In this document: positions 17,098-33,238 of the stretch, one piece after another | Layout of the letters: each line of letters starts with the position of its first letter | How positions within the stretch are numbered: the first letter of the stretch is position 1 | Assembly: GCA_963676835.2 (NCBI GenBank) | Contig: CAXXFF010000003.1 | Coordinates: 736,001 to 800,000, forward strand | From: Marispirochaeta sp. | GTDB lineage: Bacteria > Spirochaetota > Spirochaetia > JC444 > Marispirochaetaceae | Length of the DNA: 64,000 bases | Direction of reading: 5' to 3' | The notes under the pieces: model-generated | Told to the model about the DNA's origin: nothing | Databases searched by the model: none | Seen by the model: only the letters and a program-made list of their open reading frames with translations | Position numbers and translations under genes: made by a program

Positions 17098-17116
17098 CGT
17101 CGCGAAACATGCAACA
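17098..17116. promoter_or_regulatory. Putative enhancer (UAS) for the sigma54 activator
   Basis: CGTCGC-N7-GCAACA, 101 bp from the -24 box; matches TGTTGC-N7-GCAACA at 21852. Confidence 0.55.
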
Positions 17117-17145
17117 TTTATAGAATATACAAGGAACAACGGAAC

Positions 17146-17181
17146 AAAAAAATGAGACCCTTCGAATACTCGAAGGGTCTC
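17146..17181 (-). terminator. Intrinsic terminator after tctA copy 2
   Basis: GAGACCCTTCGA-ATAC-TCGAAGGGTCTC perfect 12-bp stem plus T run on the minus strand. Confidence 0.85.
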
Positions 17182-17205
17182 CCACACATTAGAAAGTACC
17201 AATAA

Positions 17206-18717
17206 TCAGTTCTCAACCTGCCGGTTAAACTTGCTGAGAAAGATTACAAATACAACAGACAGAACGAGGAATATAAGACTGTCTATTTCGGTAAAAAATA
17301 CCAGCAAATTGTTGTGCGATATTGACAGCACCCGTCGAAAGTATTCCTCAAAGAGTGGCCCCAGAAGGGCTCCAAGAATAAACGGGACCGAAGGATATTT
17401 CTGTCCCCGGAGAAAATAGATCATTACTCCCACCGCAAGGCCTACAAACATCTGAAATACCGAGTAGGTGGCTGCATATGCCCCGGTGAGGGATATGGCA
17501 GCAATGCTTGAGTAAAGAACCAGGCGGTTGATCTTTACGATTTTGATATAGTAAGGCCCGAAAATAAAAAGTGAAAGCGGCATAAGCACTGCAGCTGCAA
17601 AGGCAAGGGCGGCATACATGGGAGCTACCAGATAGAGCTGCTTGGAAAGAATTTCCGGTCCGGGAATAACTCCGTAAACCATAAGAACGCCAAGTACAAT
17701 GGCGGTTACACCATCTCCGGGAATACCGAAGGTCAGCATTGGTACAAGTGCACCTCCGCAGACTGCGTTGTTTGCACCTTCGGCACAGGCGATCCCTTCA
17801 TAAAAACCGGTACCATATTTTTCCGGATGCTTTGAAGAGCGTTTACCCTCTGCATAGGATACAAAGGCAGCCATACTACCCCCTGCACCGGGCAGGGCTC
17901 CAATAAAATAACCGATCAAAGCACTTTTCAGGTAACGCCAGGCTCCAACTGCCTTGACTTCCTCCCACTTGGGAATAAAGTCCCGTCGGCGGATTTTCAT
18001 TCCCTCCGAGGCTTCAGCTATTTTTCTGAACTCAGCATTGCTGATTGCCGACTGGGTCAGAAGCTCTGAGATCGCGAAGGCTCCAATAACAATGGGAACA
18101 AACTCAAAGCCTTCAAGCAGTGTAATTGAGCCGAAAGTAAAACGCTGGGTCGGCCGCATAACGCCCATCCCAACCGTTGCCAGCACAAGACCGATGATGG
18201 TCATCATGGCTGCCTTGGGCCAGTCTTTTCCGGAAAGTGCCGCAATTACAACAAAGGCGAAAAGTATCAGCGAAGCCTTTCCGGGGGTTTTTATCATAAG
18301 TGCGACTTTTACCGCCAGCGGTGAGATGGCAATAAGCAGAATTACACCGATGGTTCCGCCGATGGCAGAGGCCAGGGTGGAATGAGCAAGAGCCTTCGCT
18401 CCCTGCCCCTGCTTCATCATAAGGTGGCCGTCGATTGCCGTCATCGCTCCCGAGGGAGCTCCCGGTATATTTATGGTAATGGCGGTAATTGAACCGGAGT
18501 ACATACCAGCCATGTAAATTCCCATACACATAAAAAGTGCCGCATTCATGGACATGCTGTATGTCATGGGCAGCAGAAGCACTATAGCAAGCGTTGCCGT
18601 TAGACCCGGAATTGAACCGAAAATAACACCTACTACAAAGCCGAACATAAGCGTCAGCAGCAGGATTGGATCTGCCAGCAGGGTGAATGCATCAAGTATT
18701 TGTCCTATGGTAGACAT
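17206..18717 (-). CDS. tctA: TTT large subunit (copy 2)
   Basis: GSIPGLTAT, NIPGAPS, EGANNA, LTFGIPGD. Confidence 0.93.
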   Translation of the reverse strand: MSTIGQILDAFTLLADPILLLTLMFGFVVGVIFGSIPGLTATLAIVLLLPMTYSMSMNAALFMCMGIYMAGMYSGSITAITINIPGAPSGAMTAIDGHLMMKQGQGAKALAHSTLASAIGGTIGVILLIAISPLAVKVALMIKTPGKASLILFAFVVIAALSGKDWPKAAMMTIIGLVLATVGMGVMRPTQRFTFGSITLLEGFEFVPIVIGAFAISELLTQSAISNAEFRKIAEASEGMKIRRRDFIPKWEEVKAVGAWRYLKSALIGYFIGALPGAGGSMAAFVSYAEGKRSSKHPEKYGTGFYEGIACAEGANNAVCGGALVPMLTFGIPGDGVTAIVLGVLMVYGVIPGPEILSKQLYLVAPMYAALAFAAAVLMPLSLFIFGPYYIKIVKINRLVLYSSIAAISLTGAYAATYSVFQMFVGLAVGVMIYFLRGQKYPSVPFILGALLGPLFEEYFRRVLSISHNNLLVFFTEIDSLIFLVLSVVFVIFLSKFNRQVEN

Positions 18718-18731
18718 AATTCAGGTTCCTC

Positions 18732-19220
18732 CTAATACAATCCGAAGAACATTTTTTCGAACTGCACATTAAAGATCACCCAGTACAGAACGTACACAAC
18801 TCCGGTAATCAGAACTGCGTAAATAAGTTTTCTTACCAACTGCTGAATTTCATCATCAAAAAAGATTAGAAAGAGATAAACATATACCAGTACAGAAGGT
18901 ATTAAACCGGTAAGCTTAAACAGTACGATATACAGCAGTGAGACAATTGAAAGAATCAGGGGGGTGGTAACAACCTTTACAGGCTTATCTGATTCTTTAC
19001 CGCCTTCTTTTTTTACTTCCTGAACGGCATCGTACATAAGCTTTATGGCCAGGGGTATTCCAATAACCCCCAGAAGCACGGGAAAGAAAGACTCACTGGT
19101 TTTCTCTCCCATAAAAAGCGGACCCATGCTGATTCCCAGGGTCAGATAAATAATCAGCGCAACCAGAACAACAGCAGGAACAACTACCCTGGCATGCAGG
19201 TAGGGGTTTCGCAATTCCAT
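18732..19220 (-). CDS. tctB: TTT small subunit (copy 2)
   Basis: 4 hydrophobic segments, FFP motif, position in operon. Confidence 0.85.
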   Translation of the reverse strand: MELRNPYLHARVVVPAVVLVALIIYLTLGISMGPLFMGEKTSESFFPVLLGVIGIPLAIKLMYDAVQEVKKEGGKESDKPVKVVTTPLILSIVSLLYIVLFKLTGLIPSVLVYVYLFLIFFDDEIQQLVRKLIYAVLITGVVYVLYWVIFNVQFEKMFFGLY

Positions 19221-19247
19221 CAGATTTTCCTTCTAGTTTTAATAGAA

Positions 19248-19276
19248 GGCCGGTCTTTTTATTAAAAAGACCGGCC
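19248..19276. terminator. Stem-loop between tctC and tctB
   Basis: GGCCGGTCTTTTT-ATT-AAAAAGACCGGCC. Confidence 0.6.
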
Positions 19277-19299
19277 CTACAATTCCGTATTCCGGATGA

Positions 19300-20295
19300 T
19301 TAGTCGATCAGACCTTTCTCTTTCATGACATCAAGGGCCTTGAAAGATTTTTCCTGAATGGCACGTACAAAGTCACGGGACTTGTCCTGACCAAACCAGC
19401 CTGCGGTTACACCAACAGATTTAGTCCAGCTGCGGAACTCATCTGAGTGCTGTGCATCGTAGTACAGCTTCTCGATGGTATCCAGTACATCCTGAGGAGT
19501 ATCGATGGGAGCAACAATTACGTTGAAACTTCCAATCTCCATTTCTGCATGTCCCTTGTCTGCAATAGTAGGAACATCGGTATAGGTTTCGTTCTGGATT
19601 GTAGAGTATTCAACAAGACCGCGAACCTGGCCGGACTGCAGCACTGCAGCAAAGTCACCAAGACTGGTTATAACAGCATCACACTCACCGGAAAGAAGAG
19701 CTTCTCTCTGGGGACCGGCGCCGTCAACATATTCGATCTGGGAAAATTTAACTCCGTAGATCTCTTCTGTCTGCATGGTGATCATGGAAGGACGTCCGCC
19801 GATAGCAGTAATACCAACAGTCAGTTTGCCGGGATTTGCTTTGGCATCATCAATGAACTGCTCATATGTTTTCCAGGGAGAGTCAGCCTTAACCATAAGA
19901 GCATCGGCTTCCTGAGTTACAATACATACAAACTTAAGCTTGTCCAGGTCGTACTGGGGAATGAGTTTGTAATAAACCGCACCTACACATGCTCCATAGG
20001 TAAGGTTACCCAGGGTGTAGCCGTCGGGACGAGCACGCATTACATCAAAGGGTGCTGCTGCTTCACCGGAACCGGGCTTGTTTATTACGGGAATACTTAC
20101 ATCGAGGTTCTTTTCAATAATAGATGCCAGCTTCCGGTTGATAGTGTCAGTTCCACCGCCGGCACCACCGTTGGTAATAAACTGGATATCCTTTGCAGGA
20201 TACGCTTTTTCCTGTCCACCTTCTGCAAATACTACTCCGGAAAGCAGTGCAAGAGCCATGAGCGCCACAACAAACCGTACAATCTGTTTTTTCAT
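19300..20295 (-). CDS. tctC: TTT substrate-binding protein (copy 2)
   Basis: YPAKDI, GGGTD, NKPG, RPDGYT, DVPT. Confidence 0.92.
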   Translation of the reverse strand: MKKQIVRFVVALMALALLSGVVFAEGGQEKAYPAKDIQFITNGGAGGGTDTINRKLASIIEKNLDVSIPVINKPGSGEAAAPFDVMRARPDGYTLGNLTYGACVGAVYYKLIPQYDLDKLKFVCIVTQEADALMVKADSPWKTYEQFIDDAKANPGKLTVGITAIGGRPSMITMQTEEIYGVKFSQIEYVDGAGPQREALLSGECDAVITSLGDFAAVLQSGQVRGLVEYSTIQNETYTDVPTIADKGHAEMEIGSFNVIVAPIDTPQDVLDTIEKLYYDAQHSDEFRSWTKSVGVTAGWFGQDKSRDFVRAIQEKSFKALDVMKEKGLID

Positions 20296-20573
20296 CGTCT
20301 TCTCCTTTAAGCTTTGTCAACCGAAACTGCGGACACGCTATCCATATACTTATGTCTGATGCATCACCCTTTTGAGCCCTCCATGCCCGAAAAAATTGTG
20401 ATTCAACCGACATGCTTTGTATACAAACAGAATACATACCAGATTCGATCCGGACTTATTTTTATATATCACACCGTATATGTCAAGCATTATTTTGCAT
20501 ACATAATGTGATGTTTCAAATAAGGCCGTCCCGGCAGAGACGGCCTTAACAGAAGAAGAGAATTTACGCAGAT

Positions 20574-21704
20574 TTACTTCTGTATTGGATAGACTCCGTA
20601 TTTTTTCCGGGCATCCATCATGGCCTGATAGTTTTCCATGGTAGTCCCGTTTTCGAGTCCGTTGCCGCTGGCAATTACCAGCCCTCCTCCGGGAGCCGCA
20701 TTCTGTACTGCATACTTTACTTCCGCATCCACATCTTCGGGAGTTCCGTCGATAAGTGTTTCGCAGTTAACGCTGCCGAAGAAACAGAGCTTATCGCCGT
20801 ATTTCTCATTGAGAAGTTTAAAATCCATACCGATGCTGGACTGGATACCATGCCAGCCGTCCACACCGGCCTCTACGAGGGAATCGAGAATATCCCAGGT
20901 TCGACCATCTGTATGCTTGATAAAATAGCCGCCCTTGTCGTGAGCAGCTTTTACCTGCTTTACAAGACCGGGATACATAAACTCCCGCCACCTTTCGTAG
21001 CCCATCATAAGGCCCCTGTTGTCGGCATAATCGTCGGTGGGCATTACCGCATCAACTCCTGCATCAAAAAAGGCGTTTATATAGGCGATACTGCGGTTAA
21101 CATAAATTTCCGATGCTTTTTTTATAAAATCCGGATCGATAATAAGCCGCATCAGATACTCTTCGATTCCAACTGTCTGCTTATAGGCGAAAGTACCGTC
21201 CAGGGGAAGCCGTGCGATAATAAAATGGGTATCTTTCATCTCGGCTATAACGCCTTTAATAACATCCATTTCACTGGGATCCACCGTGAAGTCTTCATTT
21301 ACATCGGGCAGATCATCGATGGTCATTTCCGTATTGTAGTGGGGAGTAACCTGCTGACCGATGTCGGGATTATAGTGGAACTGCATACCCTTCTCGTCCT
21401 CCCAGGAATAATCTCCGAGCATCCTGGGATGTTTGTATTCTTTATCTACCGGCGAAGCGGGAATTCGGATATAGTCATGGCCGAGAACTTTCGGCAGTTC
21501 TGTAAGGGTCTTAATTGAGTCGTCAATATACTCCTGCCGCCTGCCGTCCCAGCAGTACTTCAGTTCGGCAAACCCGTTTCCGTACAGAACAGGCCGTTCC
21601 AGATACTTCTCCACAAGCTTGTGATGGATATGGTTTTCCCCCATGGGAACCATATCTGCTTCCCTGTGATTCAACATTGCTATTACGCGTTCTCTTGGCA
21701 GCAT
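20574..21704 (-). CDS. URO-D/MtaA-family protein, copy B
   Basis: Colinear paralog of 15700-16830 (same length, KHTDG, HGIQSSIGMD). Confidence 0.85.
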   Translation of the reverse strand: MLPRERVIAMLNHREADMVPMGENHIHHKLVEKYLERPVLYGNGFAELKYCWDGRRQEYIDDSIKTLTELPKVLGHDYIRIPASPVDKEYKHPRMLGDYSWEDEKGMQFHYNPDIGQQVTPHYNTEMTIDDLPDVNEDFTVDPSEMDVIKGVIAEMKDTHFIIARLPLDGTFAYKQTVGIEEYLMRLIIDPDFIKKASEIYVNRSIAYINAFFDAGVDAVMPTDDYADNRGLMMGYERWREFMYPGLVKQVKAAHDKGGYFIKHTDGRTWDILDSLVEAGVDGWHGIQSSIGMDFKLLNEKYGDKLCFFGSVNCETLIDGTPEDVDAEVKYAVQNAAPGGGLVIASGNGLENGTTMENYQAMMDARKKYGVYPIQK

Positions 21705-21735
21705 TTCTATCTCCTTTGGTATTTATCTCTTTAAA

Positions 21736-21751
21736 TGCAGATATCATGCCA
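21736..21751 (-). promoter_or_regulatory. Sigma54 -24/-12 promoter
   Basis: TGGCATGATATCTGCA (GG-N10-GC) upstream of URO-D copy B. Confidence 0.8.
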
Positions 21752-21851
21752 AAAGAAACAATCGGTTTATATGAATATAATTCATTACAAAGAAACCAAT
21801 TACCAGCACACCGCAATAACCGCTTTTTTCAACAAGCACAAAAGCAACATA

Positions 21852-21870
21852 TGTTGCGCTACGTGCAACA
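21852..21870. promoter_or_regulatory. Putative enhancer (UAS)
   Basis: TGTTGC-N7-GCAACA palindrome 102 bp from the -24 box. Confidence 0.6.
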
Positions 21871-21880
21871 TCTTGAAACT

Positions 21881-21915
21881 AAAAAAAAGGCCGTCCCGAA
21901 TGCAACGGAACGGCC
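21881..21915 (-). terminator. Intrinsic terminator after tctA copy 3
   Basis: GGCCGT..ACGGCC hairpin next to an A8 run. Confidence 0.7.
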
Positions 21916-21936
21916 CTGGTACTGCAGCATGCAGAA

Positions 21937-23448
21937 TCAGTTATCAACCTGCTTGTTGAACTTGTTAAGAAACAGAACAAACACAACGGAGAGCACAAGA
22001 AAAACAAGGCTGTCCAGCTCGGTAAAGAATACCAGCAGATTGTTATGGGAAATTGACAGCACCCGTCTGAAATATTCTTCAAAGAGCGGCCCGAGAAGGG
22101 CACCAAGTATAAAAGGTACTGCAGGATACTTCTGCCCGCGGAAGAAGTAGATCATTACGCCCACCGCAAGACCTACAAACATCTGAAAAACCGAGTAGGT
22201 TGCCGCGAAAGCGCCGGTAAGAGAAATTGCAGCAATACTTGAGTAGAGAACCAGGCGGTTGATCTTTACTATCTTGATATAATAGGGCCCGAAGATAAAC
22301 AGAGAGAGGGGCATAAGCACCGCAGCGGCAAACCCGAGGGCTGCATACATCGGGGCTACCAGATAAAGCTGCTTGGAAAGAATTTCCGGACCGGGAATTA
22401 CACCGTAAACCATAAGCACACCAAGAACAATGGCGGTTACACCGTCACCGGGAATGCCGAAGGTGAGCATGGGTACCAGCGCACCACCGCAGACTGCATT
22501 ATTTGCTCCCTCGGCGCAGGCGATACCTTCATAGAAACCGGTACCGTACTTTTCCGGATGCTTTGAAGAGCGCTTACCCTCAGCATAGGAAACAAAAGCC
22601 GCCATACTTCCACCGGCTCCTGGAAGGGCACCGATAAAATAGCCGATAATCGCACTTTTAAGATAGCGCCAGAATCCAACACTCTTAACTTCATCCCAGG
22701 GAGGAATAAAATCGCGCCTCCGGATTTTTACCCCCTCTGAAGCTTCTGCTATTTTCCGGAACTCCGCATTGCTTATGGCAGACTGGGTCAGCAGTTCAGA
22801 GATAGCGAAGGCTCCAATAACAATGGGAACAAACTCAAAGCCTTCCAGAAGGGTTATTGAACCGAAAGTAAAACGCTGGGTCGGCCGCATAACGCCCATA
22901 CCTACCGTTGCCAGTACAAGACCGATAATGGTCATCATGGCAGCCTTGGGCCAGTCTTTACCGGAAAGAGCGGAAATAACAACGAAAGCAAAAAGTATCA
23001 GTGATGCCTTTCCCGGGGTTTTGATCATAAGAGCGACCTTAACCGCCAGGGGAGAGATTGCAATAAGCAGAATAACACCGATGGTTCCGCCGATGGCTGA
23101 TGCCAGAGTGGAATGACCAAGCGCCTTGGCCCCCTGCCCCTGCTTCATCATCAGATGGCCGTCAATTGCCGTCATGGCTCCCGAGGGCGCTCCGGGAATA
23201 TTGATAGTAATGGCGGTAATTGAACCGGAGTACATTCCCGCCATGTAAATTCCCATGCACATAAAAAGGGCAGCATTCATTGACATGCTGTAGGTCATGG
23301 GCAGAAGAAGAACAATTGCCAGAGTTGCTGTAAGACCCGGAATTGAACCGAAAATAACACCTACTACAAAGCCGAACATAAGAGTCAGCAGCAGGATTGG
23401 ATCACCCAGCAGGGTGAATGCATCTAATATTTGTCCTAACGTAGACAT
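21937..23448 (-). CDS. tctA: TTT large subunit (copy 3)
   Basis: 503 aa, about 20 substitutions from copy 2 by eye. Confidence 0.93.
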   Translation of the reverse strand: MSTLGQILDAFTLLGDPILLLTLMFGFVVGVIFGSIPGLTATLAIVLLLPMTYSMSMNAALFMCMGIYMAGMYSGSITAITINIPGAPSGAMTAIDGHLMMKQGQGAKALGHSTLASAIGGTIGVILLIAISPLAVKVALMIKTPGKASLILFAFVVISALSGKDWPKAAMMTIIGLVLATVGMGVMRPTQRFTFGSITLLEGFEFVPIVIGAFAISELLTQSAISNAEFRKIAEASEGVKIRRRDFIPPWDEVKSVGFWRYLKSAIIGYFIGALPGAGGSMAAFVSYAEGKRSSKHPEKYGTGFYEGIACAEGANNAVCGGALVPMLTFGIPGDGVTAIVLGVLMVYGVIPGPEILSKQLYLVAPMYAALGFAAAVLMPLSLFIFGPYYIKIVKINRLVLYSSIAAISLTGAFAATYSVFQMFVGLAVGVMIYFFRGQKYPAVPFILGALLGPLFEEYFRRVLSISHNNLLVFFTELDSLVFLVLSVVFVLFLNKFNKQVDN

Positions 23449-23462
23449 ACAAGTTCCTTCCC

Positions 23463-23954
23463 TTAATAGAGTCCGAAAAACATCTTTTCAAACTGTACTT
23501 TGAAAATTACCCAGTACAGCACATACACTACCCCGGTAATAAGGAGCGCATAGATGAACTTTCTGAAAAGCTGCTGAATTTTGTCATCGAAAAAGACAAG
23601 AAACAGAAACACATAAATAAGAACTGCAGGAATAAGTCCTGTAAACTTGAACAGAACAATGTACAGCAGCGATACAAATGAGAGAATAAGCGGAGTCGTA
23701 ACAACCTTGACTGTAGACTCAACCTTACCCTCCTGCTGCTCCTGTTTTAATTCACGGACCGCATCAAAGAGCAGCTTGATCGCAATGGGAATACCAATCA
23801 CCCCAAGCAGTACAGGAAAAAACGACTCACTGGTCTTTTCTCCCATAAAAAGCGGCCCCATACTGATTGCCAAAGAGAGGTAAACAAGCAGTGCAACAAG
23901 CACAACTGCCGGAACCATTACCTTTGAATGCAGATAGGGATTTTTGATTTCCAT
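23463..23954 (-). CDS. tctB: TTT small subunit (copy 3)
   Basis: Paralog of 18732-19220; start MEIKNP behind AGGAAGG. Confidence 0.85.
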   Translation of the reverse strand: MEIKNPYLHSKVMVPAVVLVALLVYLSLAISMGPLFMGEKTSESFFPVLLGVIGIPIAIKLLFDAVRELKQEQQEGKVESTVKVVTTPLILSFVSLLYIVLFKFTGLIPAVLIYVFLFLVFFDDKIQQLFRKFIYALLITGVVYVLYWVIFKVQFEKMFFGLY

Positions 23955-24060
23955 CTGAACACCTTCCTGTAAAAAAGCTTGCCACAATTATATCATGGCA
24001 TGAATAAAAGCGCCCCCTATTCAAGGAGGCGCATTATAAACGTACAAATAAACCCGCAGG

Positions 24061-25050
24061 TTACTGAATAAGACCTTTTGCCTTCATAGTATCCAGTGCT
24101 TTAAAGGATTTTTCCTGTACTGCTCGTACAAAATCCCGGGCCTTGTCCTGTCCAAACCAGCCGGCGGTAACACCAACAGACTTGGTCCAGCTGCGGAACT
24201 CATCTGAGTGCTGAGCATCGTAGTAGAGCTTCTCAATGGCATCAACGGTATCCTGGGGAGTGTCAATGGGAGCTACAATTACGATGAAACTTCCAATTTC
24301 CATTTCGGCATGACCAAGGGAAGCGATGGTGGGAACGTCTGTGTAAGTAGCGTTCTGAATGGTTGAGTATTCAACCAGACCGCGTACCTGACCGGACTGA
24401 AGAACAGCTGCGAAATCACCGAGGCTGGTGATGGCAGCATCACACTCACCGGAGAGAAGTGCTTCACGCTGGGGACCTGCACCGTCAACATACTCAATTT
24501 GGGAGAACTCTACACCGTAGATCTCTTCAGTCTGCATGGTAATCATGGACGGACGTCCGCCGATAGCAGTAATACCGATGGTGATTTCACCGGGAGCTGC
24601 CTTTGCAGCAGCAATAAAATCATCGTAGGTTTTCCAGGGAGAGTCTGCTTTAACCATAAGTGCATCAGCTTCCTGAGTTACGATACAAACAAATCTGAGC
24701 TTGTCCAGGTCGTACTGGGGAATAAGCTTGTAGTAAACCGCACCTACAGTAGATCCGTAGGTAAGGTTTCCGATGGTGTATCCGTCGGGACGGGCGCGCA
24801 TTACGTCGAAGGGACCTGCAGCTTCACCGGAACCGGGCTTGTTGATAACCGGCATGCTTACATCCATGTTCTTTTCGATAATGGAAGCAAGCTTACGGGA
24901 AATAGCGTCAGTTCCACCGCCAGCACCGCTGTTACAGACATACTGAATGTCCTTTGCGGGATAGGGTTTTTCCTGTCCGCCTTCTGCAAAAAGAGCAGAA
25001 GCCACAGAAAGAATAAGAACTGCAGCCAACAATGTTTTCAGAGTTTTCAT
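24061..25050 (-). CDS. tctC: TTT substrate-binding protein (copy 3)
   Basis: Paralog of 19300-20295; start MKTLK behind AGGAG. Confidence 0.92.
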   Translation of the reverse strand: MKTLKTLLAAVLILSVASALFAEGGQEKPYPAKDIQYVCNSGAGGGTDAISRKLASIIEKNMDVSMPVINKPGSGEAAGPFDVMRARPDGYTIGNLTYGSTVGAVYYKLIPQYDLDKLRFVCIVTQEADALMVKADSPWKTYDDFIAAAKAAPGEITIGITAIGGRPSMITMQTEEIYGVEFSQIEYVDGAGPQREALLSGECDAAITSLGDFAAVLQSGQVRGLVEYSTIQNATYTDVPTIASLGHAEMEIGSFIVIVAPIDTPQDTVDAIEKLYYDAQHSDEFRSWTKSVGVTAGWFGQDKARDFVRAVQEKSFKALDTMKAKGLIQ

Positions 25051-25280
25051 AAACTCTCCTTTTTTTAATCCATGATACACTAATGTGTGATGCATCACAG
25101 ATTTTCTACTTTAAAACGCCAACGGCGTCTTTTGCTGCTGAATGTCTTTGGATTTACTGAAATACAGTGTATACCGACAGTATACAGGTTGTCAAAGGGA
25201 ATTTCTGAGAAAAGTAACATATTAGATATTTTTTTATCTATAAGACGAGGGGAAGAGGATAATGTTGATTGAGTTAAGTG

Positions 25281-25877
25281 CTAAAAAGCCCGCACAGCCC
25301 GCACCCTGGCGGGTTGATCTTTACCAACATAATTCGAATACCCCAAAGACGACCCACTGGTAAATGCCATAAACCACGCATATGAGGGTGAGTACTCTGA
25401 AGAACTCCAGTATGTGGTGCTGCCGAAGTTTGCAGTACCACTGTTGTTTCCCTCACCGTCATCAACAAGATTGTCACATATAAGACCAAGCTCATTTATG
25501 GAGGGCAGAAACCAGTCATCTTTACCGCCGCCCTTGTAATATGTCGCCATACCAGCCGCATAATCCAACAGAACATGATATCCTGCATTTTCCGCTTGCT
25601 GTATGATATATAGGGTATTATCAATACCGGTATCTACCGCAGTTCCCGTTGTGTAGATTGCTGAATCAGAAACAGGACTCCATTCAACTGTACCCTGATC
25701 AGTGGGAGCCACCTCCAGGCCGTGGACTCCACCATCGGTAATGTAAAAGACTATACCTACCCCGCTGGGTCCGATGTCACCTATGTCATAGGTTTTCGGG
25801 CCAGCTGCATCGGTCTCGCATCCGGTAAAGAGAAGAAAAGCTGTAAGTGCAAGCAGAAGGTATATGGTGTTTTTCAA
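25281..25877 (-). CDS. Lipoprotein with DUF1566/Lcl-C-like (C-type lectin fold) domain
   Basis: Lipobox FTGC; YDIGDIGPSG.GIVFY, DWFLPSINEL, YWSSSE, C-terminal VRAVRAF; TTG start. Confidence 0.8.
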   Translation of the reverse strand: MKNTIYLLLALTAFLLFTGCETDAAGPKTYDIGDIGPSGVGIVFYITDGGVHGLEVAPTDQGTVEWSPVSDSAIYTTGTAVDTGIDNTLYIIQQAENAGYHVLLDYAAGMATYYKGGGKDDWFLPSINELGLICDNLVDDGEGNNSGTANFGSTTYWSSSEYSPSYAWFMAFTSGSSLGYSNYVGKDQPARVRAVRAF

Positions 25878-25936
25878 TTGTTTACTCCGGTGTCTGTATA
25901 TTCGCCTGCAATACTATCGTAGAATGTCAGAAAGGT

Positions 25937-25960
25937 CGTTCGGGTTTATAAATCCGTACG
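25937..25960. promoter_or_regulatory. Palindromic operator 1
   Basis: CGTTCGGGTTTATAAATCCGTACG; -10 TAGTAT on the minus strand at 25911-25916 (20-nt gap). Confidence 0.85.
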
Positions 25961-26047
25961 TTTTTTTGAGGTGTTATTGAGCAATTCTCAGGAAAAGCCC
26001 CCCGGGGCCTGAGCCCCGGAGAGTGTTTGAATAATTATAGCGGATTA

Positions 26048-27022
26048 CTATTCCACCTTGTAACTATGAAGGCCTCCGCTACCATTTGCCAGATAGATAA
26101 AGTTACCATCTCCCCAGACTCCGTTGGCACTATCTCCCTGGTCATCAAAACCGATGTGGGTCAGGTAGCCGGAGGCATTCACAGTATAAACGTGGAGTCC
26201 TCCTATATCATTCGCCAGATAAATAAAATTCCCATCGCCCCATACTACACGGGCAGTATCTCCCCGGTAATCAGAATCGATATAGGTCAGATTGCCGGAA
26301 GCATCCACCGAATAGGTGTAAAGTCCTCCATTACCATTAGCCAGATAGATAAAAGTGCCATCACCCCACACACCCATGGCACTATAATTCTGGTCATCAG
26401 AATCGATATGAGTTAGGTAGCCGGAAGCATCCACCGAGTAGGCATGAAGTCCTCCAGTATAATTTGCAAGATAGATAAAATCGCCATCTCCCCAGACACC
26501 CTGAGCCAGATCACCCTGGTCATCAGAATCGACATGAGTCAGGTTTCCGGAACCATCCACTGAGTAAGTGTGAAGTCCCCCATCAGAGTTTGCCAAGTAG
26601 ATAAAGTCGCCATCTCCCCAGACACCCTTGGCTGTTCCTCCCTGGTCATCAGAATCGACATGAGTCAGGTTTCCGGAACCATCTACTGAGTAAGAGTGAA
26701 GTCCCCCATCAGAGTTTGCCAGGTAGATAAAGTCGCCATCTCCCCAGACACCCTGGGCTGTTCCTCCCTGGTCATCAGAATCGATATGGGACAGGTAGCC
26801 GGAAGCATCCACCGAGAAGGCGTGAAGTCCTCCATCATGATTTGCCAGATAGATGAAGTCGCCATCCCCCCAGACACCCATGGCCCAATATCCCTGGTCA
26901 TCCGAATCAATATGGGTCAGAGACCCAGGATTCTTAGTATCATCGGACGAGGCATCAGTGTTACATCCGGCAGCGATAAACAAAGCAAGTACCGCAAACA
27001 ACAGATACACAGTTTTTTTCAT
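26048..27022 (-). CDS. Lipoprotein, LVIVD-like 7-repeat beta-propeller
   Basis: Lipobox AAGC; seven ~42-aa repeats HIDSDDQG..A.GVWGDG.FIYLAN..GGLH.YSVD. Confidence 0.85.
   Translation of the reverse strand: MKKTVYLLFAVLALFIAAGCNTDASSDDTKNPGSLTHIDSDDQGYWAMGVWGDGDFIYLANHDGGLHAFSVDASGYLSHIDSDDQGGTAQGVWGDGDFIYLANSDGGLHSYSVDGSGNLTHVDSDDQGGTAKGVWGDGDFIYLANSDGGLHTYSVDGSGNLTHVDSDDQGDLAQGVWGDGDFIYLANYTGGLHAYSVDASGYLTHIDSDDQNYSAMGVWGDGTFIYLANGNGGLYTYSVDASGNLTYIDSDYRGDTARVVWGDGNFIYLANDIGGLHVYTVNASGYLTHIGFDDQGDSANGVWGDGNFIYLANGSGGLHSYKVE
26051..26923 (-). repeat. Intragenic 126-bp tandem repeat x7
   Basis: Near-identical DNA units, e.g. 26519-26644 vs 26645-26770. Confidence 0.9.
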
Positions 27023-27079
27023 TTTTTTCTCCTGTATTAATTGAATAGCGGAGATCTTATCCCAGTTTGGAAAACAGGT

Positions 27080-27103
27080 CGTTCGGGTTTATAAATCCGA
27101 ACG
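27080..27103. promoter_or_regulatory. Palindromic operator 2
   Basis: CGTTCGGGTTTATAAATCCGAACG; -10 TAAGAT at 27054-27059 (20-nt gap). Confidence 0.85.
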
Positions 27104-27212
27104 TTTTTTTTGATTTTTTTAACGCAGGGCAGTTTTTACACTTCAAATTCTTCCATAGTCAGTCAAGCAAGGTACAAAGAGTAACGAGAAAAGTGCTGTT
27201 TTCTGAGATGCT

Positions 27213-28265
27213 TTAAGAGGAAAGCTGCTTTTTATACTCCGACGGGGTTAGGCCGGTAAACTTTCTGAAGGCGGTATTGAAGGCAGTTTTGGAATTAAAG
27301 CCGCACTCAAAGGCAATTTCCAGGATATTTACATCGCTTTTTGCATGCAGGAGGGTTTTGGCCTCTTCCACCCGGTAGGAGTTTATAAAATTATTGAAGC
27401 TTGCTTTATGATGGCTGTTCAACAGCTCCGAAAGCTGACTTGAAGATATATCCAGCTCGCCGCTTAATGTTTTTAACGACACCGACCGGTCCATATGGAT
27501 TTTTTCATCTTCAATAAGCGCATCAAGCCGCTCCATAAGCTTTTGGGTGTTGAGTTTTTCTATCTGGGATTTGCGGTAGCGTATTCCCTGAGCATCATGC
27601 TGAAGCCTGTTGAAGTAATGGGGGTAACGGATAAGAAAGAAGATAAACAATGTAGATGTGCAGGCAAAGGCTGCATCACTAACAAACTGCAGCTCACGTA
27701 CCGATGTCCAGGAAAGAATAAAAATCAGAGAAAAGAAGAGGCTGCAGGAAGCTATAAAGATAAGTACAGCAATTTGCGGAGACTTCTTCCGCCTGTAAAA
27801 GGTGCGAAGCTGCCGGATAATGAGAAACAGGTATATAAACAGGGAAAGACAGGCTGCTGAAAAAATGGCTTTGAAAACCGGGAGCGAACCCTTATCGGCT
27901 TCGTCAAAATAGAGCAGGTTGAGAACTTCTATAAGAATGAAAAATAGAAAAAAGGGAAGCGAATGCAGCACAACAGCTTTTCGGGTTATCCGTCTGTCGG
28001 TTGTAATGTATATAACGAACAGAAACAGGAAGGGGCCGATTAAGGCGATAAAGGCGTAGTCTGAAAAAATGAAATACCTGGTAAATATCTGAAATCCGGA
28101 TGTATTGAAGGATAAAGAGAAGCCATGCATACCAGTTGAGAGAAATACAACCGACAGGAAATAGTTCGACGGGAGTCTTTCTTTATGTATTAACTGTATA
28201 AAGGAGAAAAAGAAAAATATTGTTGATGCAACAAAACAGATATTGATAACGAGGTTGTGCCACAT
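27213..28265 (-). CDS. Membrane-anchored AraC-family regulator (about 6 TM plus AraC HTH)
   Basis: Hydrophobic N-terminal ~215 aa; QLSELLN, FINSYRVEEA, IAFECGFNSK.AFN.AFRKFTG.TPSEY. Confidence 0.92.
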   Translation of the reverse strand: MWHNLVINICFVASTIFFFFSFIQLIHKERLPSNYFLSVVFLSTGMHGFSLSFNTSGFQIFTRYFIFSDYAFIALIGPFLFLFVIYITTDRRITRKAVVLHSLPFFLFFILIEVLNLLYFDEADKGSLPVFKAIFSAACLSLFIYLFLIIRQLRTFYRRKKSPQIAVLIFIASCSLFFSLIFILSWTSVRELQFVSDAAFACTSTLFIFFLIRYPHYFNRLQHDAQGIRYRKSQIEKLNTQKLMERLDALIEDEKIHMDRSVSLKTLSGELDISSSQLSELLNSHHKASFNNFINSYRVEEAKTLLHAKSDVNILEIAFECGFNSKTAFNTAFRKFTGLTPSEYKKQLSS

Positions 28266-28636
28266 GGGGTGTAGAAAAGTCCTCCGCTGTACTTCAAGGC
28301 ATGCCTTACCGGGGTACGATTATTGCATAGAGGCTGTGAAAATACAACGGAAATGTGGGTAGAAAGCTTACGCCACAAACGTTAGCCCGCTCCCGGGGCA
28401 TGGCGTTGAGGAAATGGGGCGAATGTTGTTTCGGTGATCATCGGTCCCGGCTGTTTACTAGTATCTCGCCTGGGAAACTTTTTTCAGAATCTGCCCCTCC
28501 GTATGAGGTTTATCTGGTTATTGGTTTTAAACCACCCGCCGGGATGATGCCTGAAGGATGGTTTTACCTTAATTCATCAGGTATGCACTACCTAAAAAAC
28601 CTGTTTTGAAGGTATCCTACGAAATTAGTTCAATGA

Positions 28637-29266
28637 TTAAAAAGACCGGACAGCACGAACTCTTGCCCACCAGTTAGATACTTCAGATGCTTGGTATCCA
28701 TTGCGGAAAGATTGCCGATACACTGAGTCTACATCAAATTTTGATGAACTCCAATAATAATCATCAGAAAAACCGGCAACTCCGCTGTTATTCCCAAAGC
28801 CATCATCAACAAGGTTGTCCCATATCAGATTAAGCTCATCTTTCGATGGCAGAAACCAATCAACTAATCCTCCACCTCGATAATCTCTACATATTTGGGC
28901 GGCACTTCCTGTATATACTGACCACCAATTTGTGCGATTATCCATGATTAAATCTGTGTTGCTCTTACCCGTACCTACGGAAGTGCCCATTTCGATGATA
29001 CCTAGATCAATTGTAGTTGTAAATGAAATCCAAGCAGCAGATGTGCTTTGATCATACGGTGCCACCTCCATACCTTGTAAGCCATCGTCATCGCTTATGT
29101 AGAAAACTATCCCCACTCCACTAGGACCAATATCACCTATATCATAGGTCGTCGGGCCGCTGGGGCTTCCGTCACTGCTGCCAGTGCCGCCTTCCTCACA
29201 GGCTGTAAAAGCAAAAAGCATGAGAATTACCATTATAAGTGCCGCAGGTTTTATCTTAAACTTCAT
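28637..29266 (-). CDS. DUF1566-like lipoprotein
   Basis: Lipobox FTAC; DWFLPSKDEL, YWSSS, VRAVRSF. Confidence 0.8.
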   Translation of the reverse strand: MKFKIKPAALIMVILMLFAFTACEEGGTGSSDGSPSGPTTYDIGDIGPSGVGIVFYISDDDGLQGMEVAPYDQSTSAAWISFTTTIDLGIIEMGTSVGTGKSNTDLIMDNRTNWWSVYTGSAAQICRDYRGGGLVDWFLPSKDELNLIWDNLVDDGFGNNSGVAGFSDDYYWSSSKFDVDSVYRQSFRNGYQASEVSNWWARVRAVRSF

Positions 29267-29354
29267 ACAATCCTCCGAAAGAACCGTTTTTAATATTGAT
29301 TTTCTTCTCTACCAGTAAATCTGCTGGAAATACTATCGCAAATGTGCAGACAAG

Positions 29355-29380
29355 TCGTACGGATTTATAAATCCGTACGA
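29355..29380. promoter_or_regulatory. Palindromic operator 3 (perfect 26 bp)
   Basis: TCGTACGGATTTATAAATCCGTACGA; -10 TAGTAT at 29330-29335. Confidence 0.88.
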
Positions 29381-29498
29381 ATTTTTCAATGTTTTTGCGT
29401 TAAACAGGGGGAAATGGTCCCGGGGCGTAGGCCCCGGGGGTGTCAGGAGGGTGAAGGTTATCAATTTTGAAAAATTAAAGCACCATTGTAATACAGTT

Positions 29499-30107
29499 TT
29501 AAAAATACCTGATAGCTCTAATCCTATATATACTGCTCTTGGGGGACCAGCCCTCATATCCACTACCGAGGTAAGGATCTATACCAAAAAACTTCATCAT
29601 TACACTGTTAGATGAACCTTGGATCTCTGAAGAACTCCAATATTTAGCATTAGCGAAACCGCCGACTCCGCTATTGTTCTGCACAAGATTGTCCCAGACT
29701 AGCCGTAGCTCCTCTATGGACGGTAGATACCAATCATCTTTCCCACCACCGTCATAATTAAGACAAATCTGGGCAGCACTTGCAGTATGACCACTCTGAT
29801 GAGTTATAGCATATGAATTAGAAATGCCGAAGTACAACCAATCGACTGTTCCAACTTCACCCGTAATATTACTCCAGGGTGCTCCAACATGTTGATCTTC
29901 TGGCGCCACTTCCAGCCCTTGTAACCCGCCATCGGTTATGTAGAAAACAATCCCAACACCGCTAGGGCCGGTATCGCCTATGGCATAAATTGTCGGGCCG
30001 CTGGTGCTACCATCACTGCTGCCAGTACCGCCGGCTTCGCAGGCGGTAAAAGCAAACAGCATGAGAACTACCATTGTAAATGCCGCAGATTTTATCTTAA
30101 ACTTCAT
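29499..30107 (-). CDS. DUF1566-like lipoprotein
   Basis: Lipobox FTAC; DWYLPSIEEL, YWSSSE, IRAIRYF. Confidence 0.8.
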   Translation of the reverse strand: MKFKIKSAAFTMVVLMLFAFTACEAGGTGSSDGSTSGPTIYAIGDTGPSGVGIVFYITDGGLQGLEVAPEDQHVGAPWSNITGEVGTVDWLYFGISNSYAITHQSGHTASAAQICLNYDGGGKDDWYLPSIEELRLVWDNLVQNNSGVGGFANAKYWSSSEIQGSSNSVMMKFFGIDPYLGSGYEGWSPKSSIYRIRAIRYF

Positions 30108-30195
30108 ACTATCCTCCGAAGGAATCGTTTTTAGTATTGATTTTCTTCTCTATTAGTAAATCTTGGGGAAATACTACCGCAAATATGCAGGCAGG

Positions 30196-30221
30196 TCGTA
30201 CGGATTTATAAATCCGTACGA
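30196..30221. promoter_or_regulatory. Palindromic operator 4 (perfect 26 bp)
   Basis: Identical to operator 3; -10 TAGTAT at 30171-30176. Confidence 0.88.
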
Positions 30222-30236
30222 ATTTTTAGAGGTTTT

Positions 30237-31289
30237 CTACAAAGAAAGCTGCTTTTTATACTCAGACGGCGTAAGGCCGGTAAACTTTCTGAAGGCAGTA
30301 TTAAAGGTCGACTTGGAATTAAAGCCGCACTCAAAGGCAACCTCAAGAATATTAACCCCGGCCATTGTCTGCAACAGGATTTTAGCCTCTTCCACCCGGT
30401 GTGCATTTATAAAACTGTTAAACCCGGCCTTATAATGGCTGTTTAAAAGCTCAGAAAGCTGGGAAGGAGATATATCCAACATCCGGCTTACCCCTTCCAG
30501 GGAAACTGATCGATCCAGATGGATTTTCTCTTTCTCCATTAACAGATCAAGCTCTTCAATAAGCCTCTGCTTGTTAAGCCCCTCAATCTGAGACCTACGG
30601 TACCGCCTTTCCCGGGACTCTTTCTGAGCAATACTGAAGTAATGGGGATAGCGGATAAGAAAGAAAATAAACAGCAGGGAAATGCAGATAAAAGCGACAT
30701 CCCCGATAAACTGAAGCTCCCGCAACAGGGTATTGGAAAGAATAAGCAGAACGCAGGAGAAAAGGCCGAAGATGGTTATAAAAATGAGAAACCTGAGGGC
30801 CCGGGACGGCTCTTTTGTGCAAAAAGCGTACAGCAGCCGGTACACACCAATAAGGTAGAAAAAGAACACCAGATACGATGTGGAAACAATATGCTGAAAA
30901 ACCTGAAGTGCCCCCTTAACGGCAGGATCGGGAAATATGAAATTGAGAGCCTCTATAACAATCAGGGAAAGAACAAAAGGCAGTGAATGGAGCAGCACTT
31001 TCTTCCAGCTTATACCGGTCTCTGTGGTGGTATAGAGAAAAAACAGATACAGAAACGGCCCCAAAAGAAAAAGAAAGGCGCTGTCGGAATAGAGAAAATA
31101 GCGGTAAAAAATGTGACTATCCCCGGCATAAAGCCATAAAGAGAGGCCCTGAATACCTATGGAAAAGAAGATAACCGCAAGAAAATAGTTCGACAGAGGC
31201 TTATCTTTATGCACCAGCTGGGCGAGGGAGAAAAAGAAAAATACTATTGATGCGACAATGGAAACATTGATGGCGAAGTCAACTGACAT
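30237..31289 (-). CDS. Membrane-anchored AraC-family regulator (paralog of 27213-28265)
   Basis: Same length (350 aa) and architecture; VAFECGFNSKSTFNTAFRKFTG. Confidence 0.92.
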   Translation of the reverse strand: MSVDFAINVSIVASIVFFFFSLAQLVHKDKPLSNYFLAVIFFSIGIQGLSLWLYAGDSHIFYRYFLYSDSAFLFLLGPFLYLFFLYTTTETGISWKKVLLHSLPFVLSLIVIEALNFIFPDPAVKGALQVFQHIVSTSYLVFFFYLIGVYRLLYAFCTKEPSRALRFLIFITIFGLFSCVLLILSNTLLRELQFIGDVAFICISLLFIFFLIRYPHYFSIAQKESRERRYRRSQIEGLNKQRLIEELDLLMEKEKIHLDRSVSLEGVSRMLDISPSQLSELLNSHYKAGFNSFINAHRVEEAKILLQTMAGVNILEVAFECGFNSKSTFNTAFRKFTGLTPSEYKKQLSL

Positions 31290-31500
31290 TTAGTAGTACA
31301 AACCCCCGAAGTTCTACAGAGCAAGCCTGACAACTACAGATTATTGCATGTCGCCCCTGAAAAAACAACGAAAGAAAGTCTCGATCCCACCGGGAAAAAT
31401 GTAAGAAAAACAGGATTGAAAACAACTACAGAAGGCGGTGAGCAAAGAAGCGGGGCGGAACAGAAGCAGGCGTAAACAGCATCGGGATTCTGATTGGAGC

Positions 31501-31542
31501 AAAAAAAAGGGCTCATCCTGCTGCAGGAATGAACCCTTTTTT
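31501..31542. terminator. Intrinsic terminator after ettA (bidirectional-type)
   Basis: A8-GGGCTCAT.CCTGC..GCAGG.ATGAACCC-T6. Confidence 0.8.
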
Positions 31543-31555
31543 GAGTAAAAACAGA

Positions 31556-33238
31556 TCAGTCTCTGGTAAGACTGCGGTATTTAATGCGGTGAGGAATAAG
31601 GGCCGCCTCGCCGAGACGGTTCTTTCTGTCTTCTTCGTATTCGCTGTAGTTGCCGTTAAAAAAGGAGACCTTACTCTCCCCTTCAAAGGCAAGAATATGG
31701 GTGGCAATACGGTCGAGGAACCAGCGGTCGTGGCTGATAACCAGCACACAGCCGGTAAAAAGCTCAATGGCATCTTCCAGGGCCCGCATGGTGTTTACAT
31801 CCAGGTCGTTGGTCGGTTCGTCCAGCAGCAGCACGTTGGCTTCGGTCTGCAGCATAAGAGCAAGCTGAACCCGGTTCCGTTCACCACCGGAAAGAACCCC
31901 CACCTTTTTCTGCTGATCCGCACCGGAGAAGTTGAACTGGGCAACATAGGCCCGGCTGTTAACCTCGCGGTTGCCGAGCTTCATGTTTTCCCGGCCGCCG
32001 GTAATCATTTCGAAAATGGTCTTATCCGCCTCAAGCACTTCCCGGGCCTGATCAACATGGGCAATCTTTACGGTTTCTCCGGTTTTTACCGTACCTTCAT
32101 CGGGTGCTTCCTGACCGGTAAGCATGCGGAACAGGGTGGTTTTACCCGCACCGTTGGGGCCGATAATACCGATGATTGCTCCGGGAGGAATGGAAAAACT
32201 CATATCATCCACAAGAATGCGGTCGTCGTAGGCCTTCTTTACCCCTTCAAGGTTGAAGACAATATCGCCCAGCCGCGGTCCCGGAGGAATATAGAGCTGA
32301 AGCTCCTTCTGCTGCTCCTTGGTTTCCTGACTCAAAAGCTGTTCGTAATGATTTACACGGGCTTTACCCTTGGCGGCACGGCCCTTGGGGCTCATTTTAA
32401 TCCACTCAAGCTCCCGCTGAAGGGTCTTCTGCCGGGCGCTCTCCTGCTTGTTCTCGTTGGCCATGCGGTTCTGCTTCTGCTCAAGCCAGGATGAGTAGTT
32501 ACCCTTCCAGGGAATACCTTCGCCACGGTCGAGCTCCAGAATCCAGCCGGCAACGTTGTCCAGAAAATAACGGTCGTGGGTTACGGCAATTACCGTACCG
32601 GGATAATCGTGCAGGTGGTGCTCAAGCCAGGCGACGGTTTCCGCATCCAGATGGTTGGTGGGCTCATCCAGGAGCAGAATATCCGGGCGCCTCAAAAGAA
32701 GGCGGCACAGGGCAACCCGGCGCTTTTCTCCACCGGAGAGGGGCTCAATCTTCTGATCCGCCGGGGGACAGCGGAGGGCGTCCATGGCCATATCAAGCCG
32801 GGAATCCAGGTCCCAGGCGTTGCTGTTATCAAGCTTCTCCTGCACCTCGCCCTGCCGCTCGAGGAGGTCGCTCATCTCATCGTCGCTCATCTCTTCGGCG
32901 AACTTTGCGTTTATTTCATCGAACTCTTTCAGAAGGTCGACAGTCTCTTGTACCCCCTCTTCCACCACTTCCCGGACAGTTTTTTCCGGATCAAGCTGGG
33001 GCTCCTGCTCAAGGTAGCCCAGGGTATAGCCCTCGGAAATGACGGTTTCGCCGTTGAAGTCCTTATCCACACCGGCAAGAATCTTCAGCAGGGTACTCTT
33101 ACCCGAACCGTTAAGACCGAGAACGCCGATCTTGGCGCCGTAGAAGTAGGAAAGGGAAATATCTTTTAAAATGGGTTTCTTGTTGAAGCTCTTGGAAACC
33201 CGGACCATTGAATAGATGATTTTATTATCTTCTGCCAT
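31556..33238 (-). CDS. ettA: Energy-dependent translational throttle ABC-F ATPase
   Basis: ILKDISLSYFYGAKIGVLGLNGSGKS, two ABC domains, RELEWIKMSPKGR, PHRIKYR. Confidence 0.96.
   Translation of the reverse strand: MAEDNKIIYSMVRVSKSFNKKPILKDISLSYFYGAKIGVLGLNGSGKSTLLKILAGVDKDFNGETVISEGYTLGYLEQEPQLDPEKTVREVVEEGVQETVDLLKEFDEINAKFAEEMSDDEMSDLLERQGEVQEKLDNSNAWDLDSRLDMAMDALRCPPADQKIEPLSGGEKRRVALCRLLLRRPDILLLDEPTNHLDAETVAWLEHHLHDYPGTVIAVTHDRYFLDNVAGWILELDRGEGIPWKGNYSSWLEQKQNRMANENKQESARQKTLQRELEWIKMSPKGRAAKGKARVNHYEQLLSQETKEQQKELQLYIPPGPRLGDIVFNLEGVKKAYDDRILVDDMSFSIPPGAIIGIIGPNGAGKTTLFRMLTGQEAPDEGTVKTGETVKIAHVDQAREVLEADKTIFEMITGGRENMKLGNREVNSRAYVAQFNFSGADQQKKVGVLSGGERNRVQLALMLQTEANVLLLDEPTNDLDVNTMRALEDAIELFTGCVLVISHDRWFLDRIATHILAFEGESKVSFFNGNYSEYEEDRKNRLGEAALIPHRIKYRSLTRD

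Follow-up and report, generated by a model that had tools for sequence, protein, structure and literature searches.

The locus analyzed here lies in a stretch of 64,000 nucleotides (nt) from Marispirochaeta sp. (contig CAXXFF010000003.1, positions 736,001 to 800,000), referred to as the window. Coordinates without a label are window positions, G000 denotes the 4.43-Mb genome carrying the locus, and three-digit L numbers are locus labels. Six open reading frames (ORFs) occupy positions 25281..31289; all are encoded on the minus strand, arranged as A2, L3, L2, A1, P7, L1. A1 and A2 are regulators, and the other four genes encode lipoproteins. A preliminary description had reported two paralogous 350-residue regulators with an AraC-type helix-turn-helix (HTH) and four co-oriented lipoprotein genes, and both statements hold. 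The regulators are 58% identical and match HTH_18 with 77 bits (curated cut-off 33.6 bits), and a signal peptide with the lipobox cysteine at residue 20-23 was found in 4 out of 4 lipoproteins. Our sequence comparisons make it likely that A1 and A2 activate the four lipoprotein genes as one-component membrane regulators via a 24-base-pair (bp) palindrome.

The window contains four copies of this palindrome, one ahead of each lipoprotein gene. No further copy was found there at up to 3 mismatches and there were no matches in 100 shuffles, which agrees with its described restriction to these four genes. In a scan of the whole genome with a matrix built from the four sites, these scored 39.9-42.6 bits and the next-best site 15.2 bits; the motif is thus not a repeat scattered over the genome without linkage to such genes. 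The distance from the palindrome to a TAGTAT or TAAGAT -10 box is 20 nt in all four cases, as had been noted. The hexamer 17 nt ahead of the box, ACGACC or ACGACT, shares only 3 of 6 positions with TTGACA. Given the usual 17-nt promoter spacing, the palindrome spans about -56 to -33 and would overlap this poor -35 hexamer by 3 bp; an overlap had been proposed previously. The four -10 boxes score under the threshold of a consensus promoter scan, as expected from the poor -35. Operator-like palindrome, -10 box, and ribosome site are separate for each lipoprotein gene, and hairpins of their own follow P7 and L3 (Table 1). At the TGCAATAAT element upstream of A2 the palindrome is absent. The contigs of run X1 match the window piecewise from 25009 to 31730 without differing letters; X1 probably is the source sample and therefore not independent.

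Table 1. Genes and predicted control elements of the regulator-lipoprotein locus, in the direction of transcription
Feature	Position	Strand	Properties
TGCAATAAT extended -10-like element	31340..31348	-	50 nt upstream of A2 start; putative function
A2 regulator	30237..31289	-	350 residues; 7 predicted membrane helices (2-213) and C-terminal AraC double HTH
Palindrome 4	30197..30220	.	perfect, 12/12 pairs; 16 nt past A2 stop codon
Predicted -10 box TAGTAT of L3	30171..30176	-	20 nt past palindrome 4
L3 lipoprotein	29499..30107	-	202 residues; lipobox Cys23; Lcl_C/DUF1566-like C-terminal domain, 31.8 bits (under cut-off)
Terminator-like hairpin 3' of L3	29419..29438	-	GC-rich; short U tract
Palindrome 3	29356..29379	.	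perfect
Predicted -10 box TAGTAT of L2	29330..29335	-	
L2 lipoprotein	28637..29266	-	209 residues; Cys23; Lcl_C-like, 29.2 bits (under cut-off)
TGCAATAAT extended -10-like element	28319..28327	-	53 nt upstream of A1 start; putative function
A1 regulator	27213..28265	-	350 residues; A2 paralog
Palindrome 2	27080..27103	.	11/12 pairs; 109 nt past A1 stop codon
Predicted -10 box TAAGAT of P7	27054..27059	-	
P7 lipoprotein	26048..27022	-	324 residues; Cys20; seven 42-residue repeats; predicted 7-bladed beta-propeller
Terminator-like hairpin 3' of P7	25998..26023	-	GC hairpin and U tract
Palindrome 1	25937..25960	.	
Predicted -10 box TAGTAT of L1	25911..25916	-	
L1 lipoprotein	25281..25877	-	198 residues; TTG start; Cys20; Lcl_C 42.1 bits (above cut-off)

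With a DNA-binding domain and membrane segments in one chain, A1 and A2 have the architecture of transmembrane one-component regulators, and no kinase or receiver domain of Pfam was found in either. About six membrane segments had been suggested. This number has to be corrected to seven, since the AlphaFold2 model of A2 (14-sequence alignment; pLDDT 86 in the predicted local distance difference test) places seven helices at residues 2-213. The loops are short, and helix 7 runs on via a linker helix into the AraC part, which superimposes on an AraC double HTH (Z 15.7, root-mean-square deviation (rmsd) 1.5, 105 residues aligned). Foldseek searches with the model returned significant E-values for AraC domains alone. 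When residues 1-220 were compared with 48,161 representative chains by VIA-align, the top 50 matches all were G-protein-coupled receptors (GPCRs) or designed GPCR-like folds. The best GPCR match reached Z 14.2 (rmsd 3.5, 214 aligned), or 14.6 among the Foldseek candidates, and GPCRs of several classes aligned at Z 12.6-14.6 with rmsd 3.3-4.6 over 205-220 residues. The seven-transmembrane (7TM) part of A1 and A2 is predicted to be a GPCR-like seven-helix bundle. Two results limit this comparison: unrelated helical bundles can reach Z about 13 in VIA-align, near the GPCR match at Z 14, and a profile of 100 7TM parts matched the D2, urotensin-2, and beta-1 receptors weakly (E 0.009-0.016) and a cation exchanger equally so (0.015). 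For these reasons we call the fold GPCR-like and do not claim descent. Class A GPCRs carry the motifs DRY and NPxxY; neither was found in the family, whose consensus has GPxLYLY, LHxxPF, and RxP instead. Microbial rhodopsin was not among the top 50 fold matches, and kinship may exist nonetheless.

No Pfam model matches the sensor part. HisKA_7TM and 7TMR-DISM_7TM each matched 1 out of 100 members without significance (E 0.028 and 0.043), which leaves room for remote kinship. There was no NCBIfam equivalog for A1 or A2 at its cut-off, and the matches in the ESM Atlas bear automatic names only. Clusters at 50% identity with a match to the 7TM part number 15,746, of which 10,238 match at E < 1e-10. 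The best 150 matches include 123 long proteins, and 122 of these contain an AraC HTH. The close profile found the family in 19 out of 401 Spirochaetia genomes and a broad profile in 30 out of 121 genomes of a class that includes a Chitinophagaceae genome. One member, P0122 (711 residues), is extended at the C-terminus by a part that resembles a Ser/Thr kinase domain on visual inspection.

A2 is a typical representative of its clade. The identity of A1 and A2 is 50% in the 7TM part and 74% in the HTH part, and around the two recognition helices the paralogs agree at 13 of 15 and 16 of 18 residues. The conserved polar residues of the 7TM part (Q47, S50, W52, D69, Y139, S185) lie in the periplasm-facing half, with the topology inferred from the cytoplasmic C-terminus. 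Five 7TM residues (Q47, W52, Y54, Y81, Y139) are changed in A1 alone and invariant in the other 13 sequences. A homodimer prediction scored 0.01, which is evidence neither way.

The co-occurrence scan proposed earlier supports a link between the palindrome and this family across phyla, with the 20-nt spacing kept. A match to the matrix from the four window sites was defined as a score above 10 bits at -25 to +150 nt of the regulator stop codon. The 3'-ends of 102 homologs were scored, leaving out loci of G000 and G004, scores under 90, and ends with less than 130 nt of flank; the set includes L009, which came from the motif search itself. The metagenome loci were gathered with the peptide pattern FNSK, which biases them toward this type of second recognition helix. 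Matches were found at 33 of the 102 ends; shuffles matched in 1.0% of cases and 255 windows lying farther downstream in 0.8%. Retraining resulted in 43 sites, or 40 after removal of 3 near-duplicates, with the consensus arms GTYC...GRAC. A TA follows exactly 20 nt past 22 of these 40 sites (19 as TAnnnT; background 6.7%), at any other spacing past at most 6, and at 20 nt in the opposite direction past 3 (binomial p 5e-16, without correction for kinship). The site matrix does not see the promoter, so this spacing is a blind test.

The box itself differs between groups. At Spirochaetia sites it is TAnnnT in 9 out of 11 cases and never ends in TTTG, and at 11 out of 31 metagenome loci it resembles TAnnTTTG, the primary-sigma element of Bacteroidota. 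Held-out loci gave weaker results. In the held-out set from other Spirochaetota classes, 5 of 17 ends matched (three from one genus), 4 of them with TA at 20 nt, and a site above 14 bits was present somewhere in 8 of the 17 loci. In the held-out set of Bacteroidia and six plasmid genes, 4 of 38 ends matched (shuffles 0.5%). L132 and L142 had been dropped from the held-out set as duplicates. Across the 32 Bacteroidia ends among the held-out loci, arm scores are highest 20 nt ahead of TTTG-type elements (p 1.5e-4 for a loose pattern picked after viewing the loci, 0.02 for a strict one, and 4e-4 for any TTTG). Hence, the spacing follows the primary-sigma box of each phylum. The site is real across phyla and detectable in a minority of the distant members. 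An arms-only matrix detected 17 of 58 training leftovers above 6 bits (shuffles 9%) and 0 out of the 17 held-out Spirochaetota ends. In a quick tree of the HTH, built from few columns, site-bearing regulators are scattered (starred branches force at least 7 changes) but nonetheless clustered relative to shuffles.

This geometry also bears on the direction of control. A1 and A2 might bind the palindrome but repress, occupying the -35 region until a signal frees them. The site does overlap the -35 position, and according to the available text of one source some AraC proteins are repressors (PMC2386152). A base-exact spacing across phyla suits polymerase contact better than steric blocking, and promoters that have neither a good -35 (3 of 6) nor an extended -10 leave little to repress. 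We regard repression as quite improbable and retain activation as the preferred interpretation.

The palindromes might alternatively act as RNA, either as terminator or stability hairpins of the upstream gene or in antisense transcripts. By their plus-strand scores all four look like terminators, a folding energy of -15.4 kcal/mol was obtained for the two perfect sites, and many homolog sites lie at the AraC stop codon. However, the sense strand lacks a U tract, sites 1 and 2 fold at just -5.2 and -9.7 kcal/mol, and the arm sequence itself, beyond its pairing, is conserved across phyla. Moreover, where the lipoprotein gene is convergent, as in G149 and the p3 clade, the site moves with the lipoprotein promoter and not with the regulator end. 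No Rfam match of note was obtained; the sole match was a sub-threshold miRNA (E 0.25), and assignment to an RNA family was rejected. An intrinsic terminator was likewise dismissed, as a stable hairpin followed by a U tract was not found on the transcribed strand. A function as RNA element therefore appears most implausible, and the palindrome is better understood as a probable DNA-binding site.

The members of the family within G000 number five, all beside lipoprotein genes. The three outside the window flank lipoprotein genes with FG-GAP and FGE-sulfatase domains by Pfam and a third that was not scanned. All 8 regulator-flanking lipoprotein genes of this genome carry a 24- or 25-bp inverted repeat, followed at 20 nt by TAnnnT in 7 cases and by TTAAAT in the eighth. 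A fourth Lcl_C gene without an adjoining regulator has no site upstream. The general matrix scored 51 positions of the genome above 12 bits; 5 had TAnnnT at 20 nt, all at regulator-lipoprotein loci. In one of the paralogs, p3, the second recognition helix reads FNST instead of FNSK, and both its sites end in GGAAG. GGAAG arms were predicted for its relatives and found in G004, G219, and G043, giving 4 out of 4 FNST regulators. In G424 (L155, positions 2629 and 3226), tandem regulators with an FGSP helix are each followed, 5-6 nt past the stop codon, by their own perfect 24-bp palindrome, which has a different sequence with CTCTCA arms and no TA at 20 nt. This likely reflects a change of specificity. 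Taken together, the arm sequence appears to shift with the second recognition helix.

Several observations weigh against the proposed control of the lipoprotein genes through this site. No site was detectable at 59 of the 102 training ends and at 34 of 38 and 12 of 17 held-out ends. Among the 4 matches from Bacteroidia and plasmids only 1 had TA at 20 nt, and 2 out of 37 upstream controls were positive. No alignment column at the recognition helices specifically predicts the presence of a site. The FNST regulators form one clade, so their covariation with GGAAG counts as one event, and L178 keeps a GGACG arm with an FNSV helix. An exact palindrome at L007:4001-4024 has no AraC gene within 4 kb, and G069 has a fourth palindrome, perfect and lying upstream of its first regulator (L121:13086-13109), with no TA at 20 nt. 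Finally, the choice of activation over repression is inferred from geometry alone.

Regarding these two sites, the L007 palindrome lies just ahead of a cobyric-acid-synthase-like gene, and the regulator-lipoprotein array of G069 precedes the same gene; it may be an array remnant. The L121 palindrome has no TA at 20 nt in either direction and GAGTAT one way. It could serve autoregulation or be a remnant. Behind a further member of the family, on plasmid NC_021819.1 (L136, 2212-4149), come a site, then TACTCT at 20 nt, and a DUF6448 gene. Members of this type occur on enterobacterial, Shewanella, and Marinobacter plasmids, and DUF6448 also follows the metagenome homolog L069. The plasmid locus would be a convenient test case in E. 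coli.

The cargo of these loci is variable. Of the three genes described as DUF1566-like, only L1 exceeds the curated cut-off of Lcl_C (PF07603, equivalent to DUF1566) of 34.9 bits. L2 and L3 fall below it and are 41-45% identical to L1. L2 matches the solved Lcl C-terminal domain 8Q4E weakly (E 0.022), and its single-sequence fold reached a pLDDT of only 36. The seven-bladed propeller proposed for P7 is in accordance with its seven 42-residue repeats. In the 11-member clade around A1 and A2, a site precedes a lipoprotein gene in 8 of 9 members outside G000; in G149 this gene faces the regulator with the site upstream of the lipoprotein, and G007 has neither site nor lipoprotein gene. The lipoproteins of this clade carry FGE-sulfatase, Kelch, FG-GAP, or Lcl_C domains or are unassigned, and DUF285 is found as well among close relatives. 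In G069, from another family, an independent array of two regulators and three lipoproteins has a site ahead of each lipoprotein gene. Outside the spirochaetes the first gene mostly encodes exported proteins, namely efflux channels, Por-secretion-tail and carboxypeptidase-regulatory-domain proteins, and DUF6448 (19 genes scanned, picked from site-bearing loci). Lcl_C domain and propeller are thus interchangeable cargo and not defining parts. Among the side observations, a lipoprotein with a MACPF domain appears as putative site-controlled cargo in G212 (L129:2764-4374). L182 and L183 (G069, G043) show a second array, in which two tandem regulators precede several lipoproteins, the later ones each with a site 20 nt ahead of TAnnnT.

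The 7TM part might sense the state of the envelope or the neighboring lipoprotein itself as a co-receptor in a feedback loop, without a small ligand. It is true that in Spirochaetia the neighbor nearly always is a lipoprotein with a binding-type fold. But the folds carried by close relatives are unrelated (FGE-sulfatase, FG-GAP, Kelch, DUF285, Lcl_C), two strains of one genus have different cargo in the same slot, and cargo outside the spirochaetes includes efflux channels and secreted proteins. We therefore consider a co-receptor unlikely and favor a small ligand, with an amphipathic molecule or peptide as best guess.

The congener G004 has an FGE-sulfatase lipoprotein in the first slot and no P7. 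A1, its site, and L1 are all degraded there, next to a complete A2 module. At E 1e-30 no match was obtained in four other congeners, which lack the island beside the flanking ATPase gene. A 348-bp header, reaching from the palindrome into the beginning of the coding region, is shared by L2 and L3 at 84% identity and suggests that the array grew by copying of operator, promoter, and signal peptide.

Such differences in cassette content between G000 and G004, together with inverted arms flanking an 8-bp core, would also be compatible with recombination sites that shuffle lipoprotein cassettes in the manner of an integron or shufflon. A related possibility is that the palindromes mark targets of a diversity-generating retroelement (DGR): according to the accessible part of PMC5758913, DGRs commonly target Lcl_C and FGE-sulfatase folds, and the genome has two reverse transcriptases. 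Both of these lie far from the locus among unrelated genes, and the locus itself is flanked by genes for a TctC protein and an ABC-type ATPase. No template repeat matched the 3' 200 nt of L1-L3, which showed only paralog-to-paralog matches of 52-55 bp. DGR target status was rejected on the missing template repeat and the distant reverse transcriptases. As to recombination, no contig joint of run X1 crosses the sites, single sites precede efflux operons (L009), the distance to the -10 boxes is fixed, and the strain differences fit homologous recombination between shared headers of 60-350 bp. Both variants are very improbable in our judgment, and we keep to the palindrome as a predicted operator. 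By eye, the two reverse transcriptase genes (G000:C3:257834-259297 and C2:1836903-1838201) resemble group II intron maturases.

The earlier proposal of a one-component sensor driving individually promoted lipoproteins thus gains comparative support, with seven helices, interchangeable cargo, and probable cross-regulation as amendments. AraC-family activators commonly act at sites overlapping the -35. We suggest the following mechanism. A1 and A2 would be made from their own palindrome-free promoters. They appear to have short loops and no separate periplasmic domain, kinase, or receiver, and a small ligand may enter the periplasm-facing half of the helix bundle and alter its shape. Two regulators would occupy the two palindrome arms, as its symmetry suggests, with the second HTH probably contacting the outer arm bases, and the bound regulators would recruit RNA polymerase with the housekeeping sigma factor. 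The header of operator, promoter, and signal peptide would be a portable unit which duplicates and picks up different binding domains. The nearly identical recognition helices indicate that the two modules probably cross-regulate. As A1 retains the DNA-reading helices of A2 and has changed pocket-side residues, one regulon with two inputs is likely, in which A1 would serve as second input to the same promoters. Alternatively, A1 may be decaying, given its degraded counterpart in G004.

On a larger scale we tentatively put forward, as a possibility we would not yet favor, that thousands of 7TM-AraC proteins are GPCR-fold receptors wired directly to DNA through one ancestral operator (GTYC-N-GRAC, 20 nt before the primary-sigma box). 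A portable promoter at the gene end would then put the following exported protein under ligand control, and spirochaetes might have built swappable adhesin arrays from it, to which duplicated receptors add inputs.

RhaS, MelR, and AraC are soluble AraC/XylS activators that bind sites overlapping the -35. A1 and A2 share their double-HTH fold and the position of the site, but a membrane sensor replaces the cupin domain and the site is a compact 24-bp palindrome. ToxR, CadC, and TcpP are examples of transmembrane transcription regulators (TTRs). The following comparisons refer to the available portions of the cited papers. Spirochaetota and Bacteroidota are enriched in TTRs (Demey et al. 2023, PMC10269533), which, like A1 and A2, combine membrane segments and a DNA-binding domain in one polypeptide without phosphorelay; in contrast to the seven helices found here, most TTRs are single-pass with a periplasmic sensor. 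In the portion at hand, neither an AraC-type 7TM family nor a fold or binding site is named (PMC10269533). Membrane-bound AraC regulators with 6-7 predicted membrane segments were described in Saccharophagus degradans and proposed as sensors of outside signals (PMC2386152). Like A1 and A2 they adjoin their presumed target genes, which encode carbohydrate-degrading enzymes; the likeness is one of description, as the passages available give no operator, fold, or experiment (PMC2386152).

Prokaryotic GPCR-like 7TM sensors fused to histidine kinases or diguanylate cyclases have been reported (PMC13581589), among them DgcT/CdgI of E. coli (PMC10760455). A1 and A2 resemble these in that the bundle is fused straight to a cytoplasmic output without a G protein. 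Their output is an AraC DNA-binding domain instead of a kinase or cyclase (PMC13581589, PMC10760455). The word AraC does not occur in the main texts of these two papers as available, and the supplementary 7TM lists of PMC13581589 may contain the family. A review on GPCR origins covers rhodopsins and, in its available portion, does not mention transcription (PMC13466386). The hybrid two-component systems (HTCS) of Bacteroides have a large periplasmic sensor, a kinase, and a receiver, and their binding sites are direct repeats spaced about 21 bp (PMC3878776). HTCS and SusR share with A1 and A2 the membrane-anchored regulator (with AraC-type HTH in HTCS), adjacent surface-protein genes, and paralogs that can share sites, whereas A1 and A2 lack periplasmic sensor, kinase, and receiver and have an inverted-repeat site (PMC3878776). 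L1, and probably also L2 and L3, carry the C-type-lectin-like DUF1566 domain of Legionella Lcl, for which no generic role is clear according to the available text, but all three are lipid-anchored and have no collagen-like stalk (PMC11162425).

Membrane AraC regulators hence are a known class, and no account of the 7TM-AraC family or its operator was found in the literature searched, which did not include most subscription papers or regulon databases. Spirochaetota and Bacteroidota are rich in multi-pass membrane transcription factors, and to our knowledge hardly any of these has a known site or target. With a predicted operator of exact geometry, a family of more than 15,000 clusters becomes testable, since regulons could be read from sequence, and a reporter with the site would permit a ligand screen. 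If the GPCR-like fold is true, this would be about the simplest 7TM signaling path, from receptor to DNA in one chain. It would then bear on the origin of 7TM receptors and be usable as a biosensor chassis. In spirochaetes, it would mean that surface proteins can be changed by regulation instead of recombination.

A different palindrome was observed next to the locus. The tctC-like gene has a near-perfect 24-bp palindrome upstream (window 25071-25094), and a different contig has a perfect copy (TAATGTGTGATGCATCACACATTA) within a stretch of 80% identity (G000:C2:398646-398731). From about 12375 to 25098, the window contains repeated units of a uroporphyrinogen-decarboxylase-like gene and a TctABC-type transporter. 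These include at least two tctC genes, and matching ORF sizes suggest three units. The tctC-side palindrome probably is the operator of a different regulator, belonging to these repeated tripartite-tricarboxylate-transporter units.

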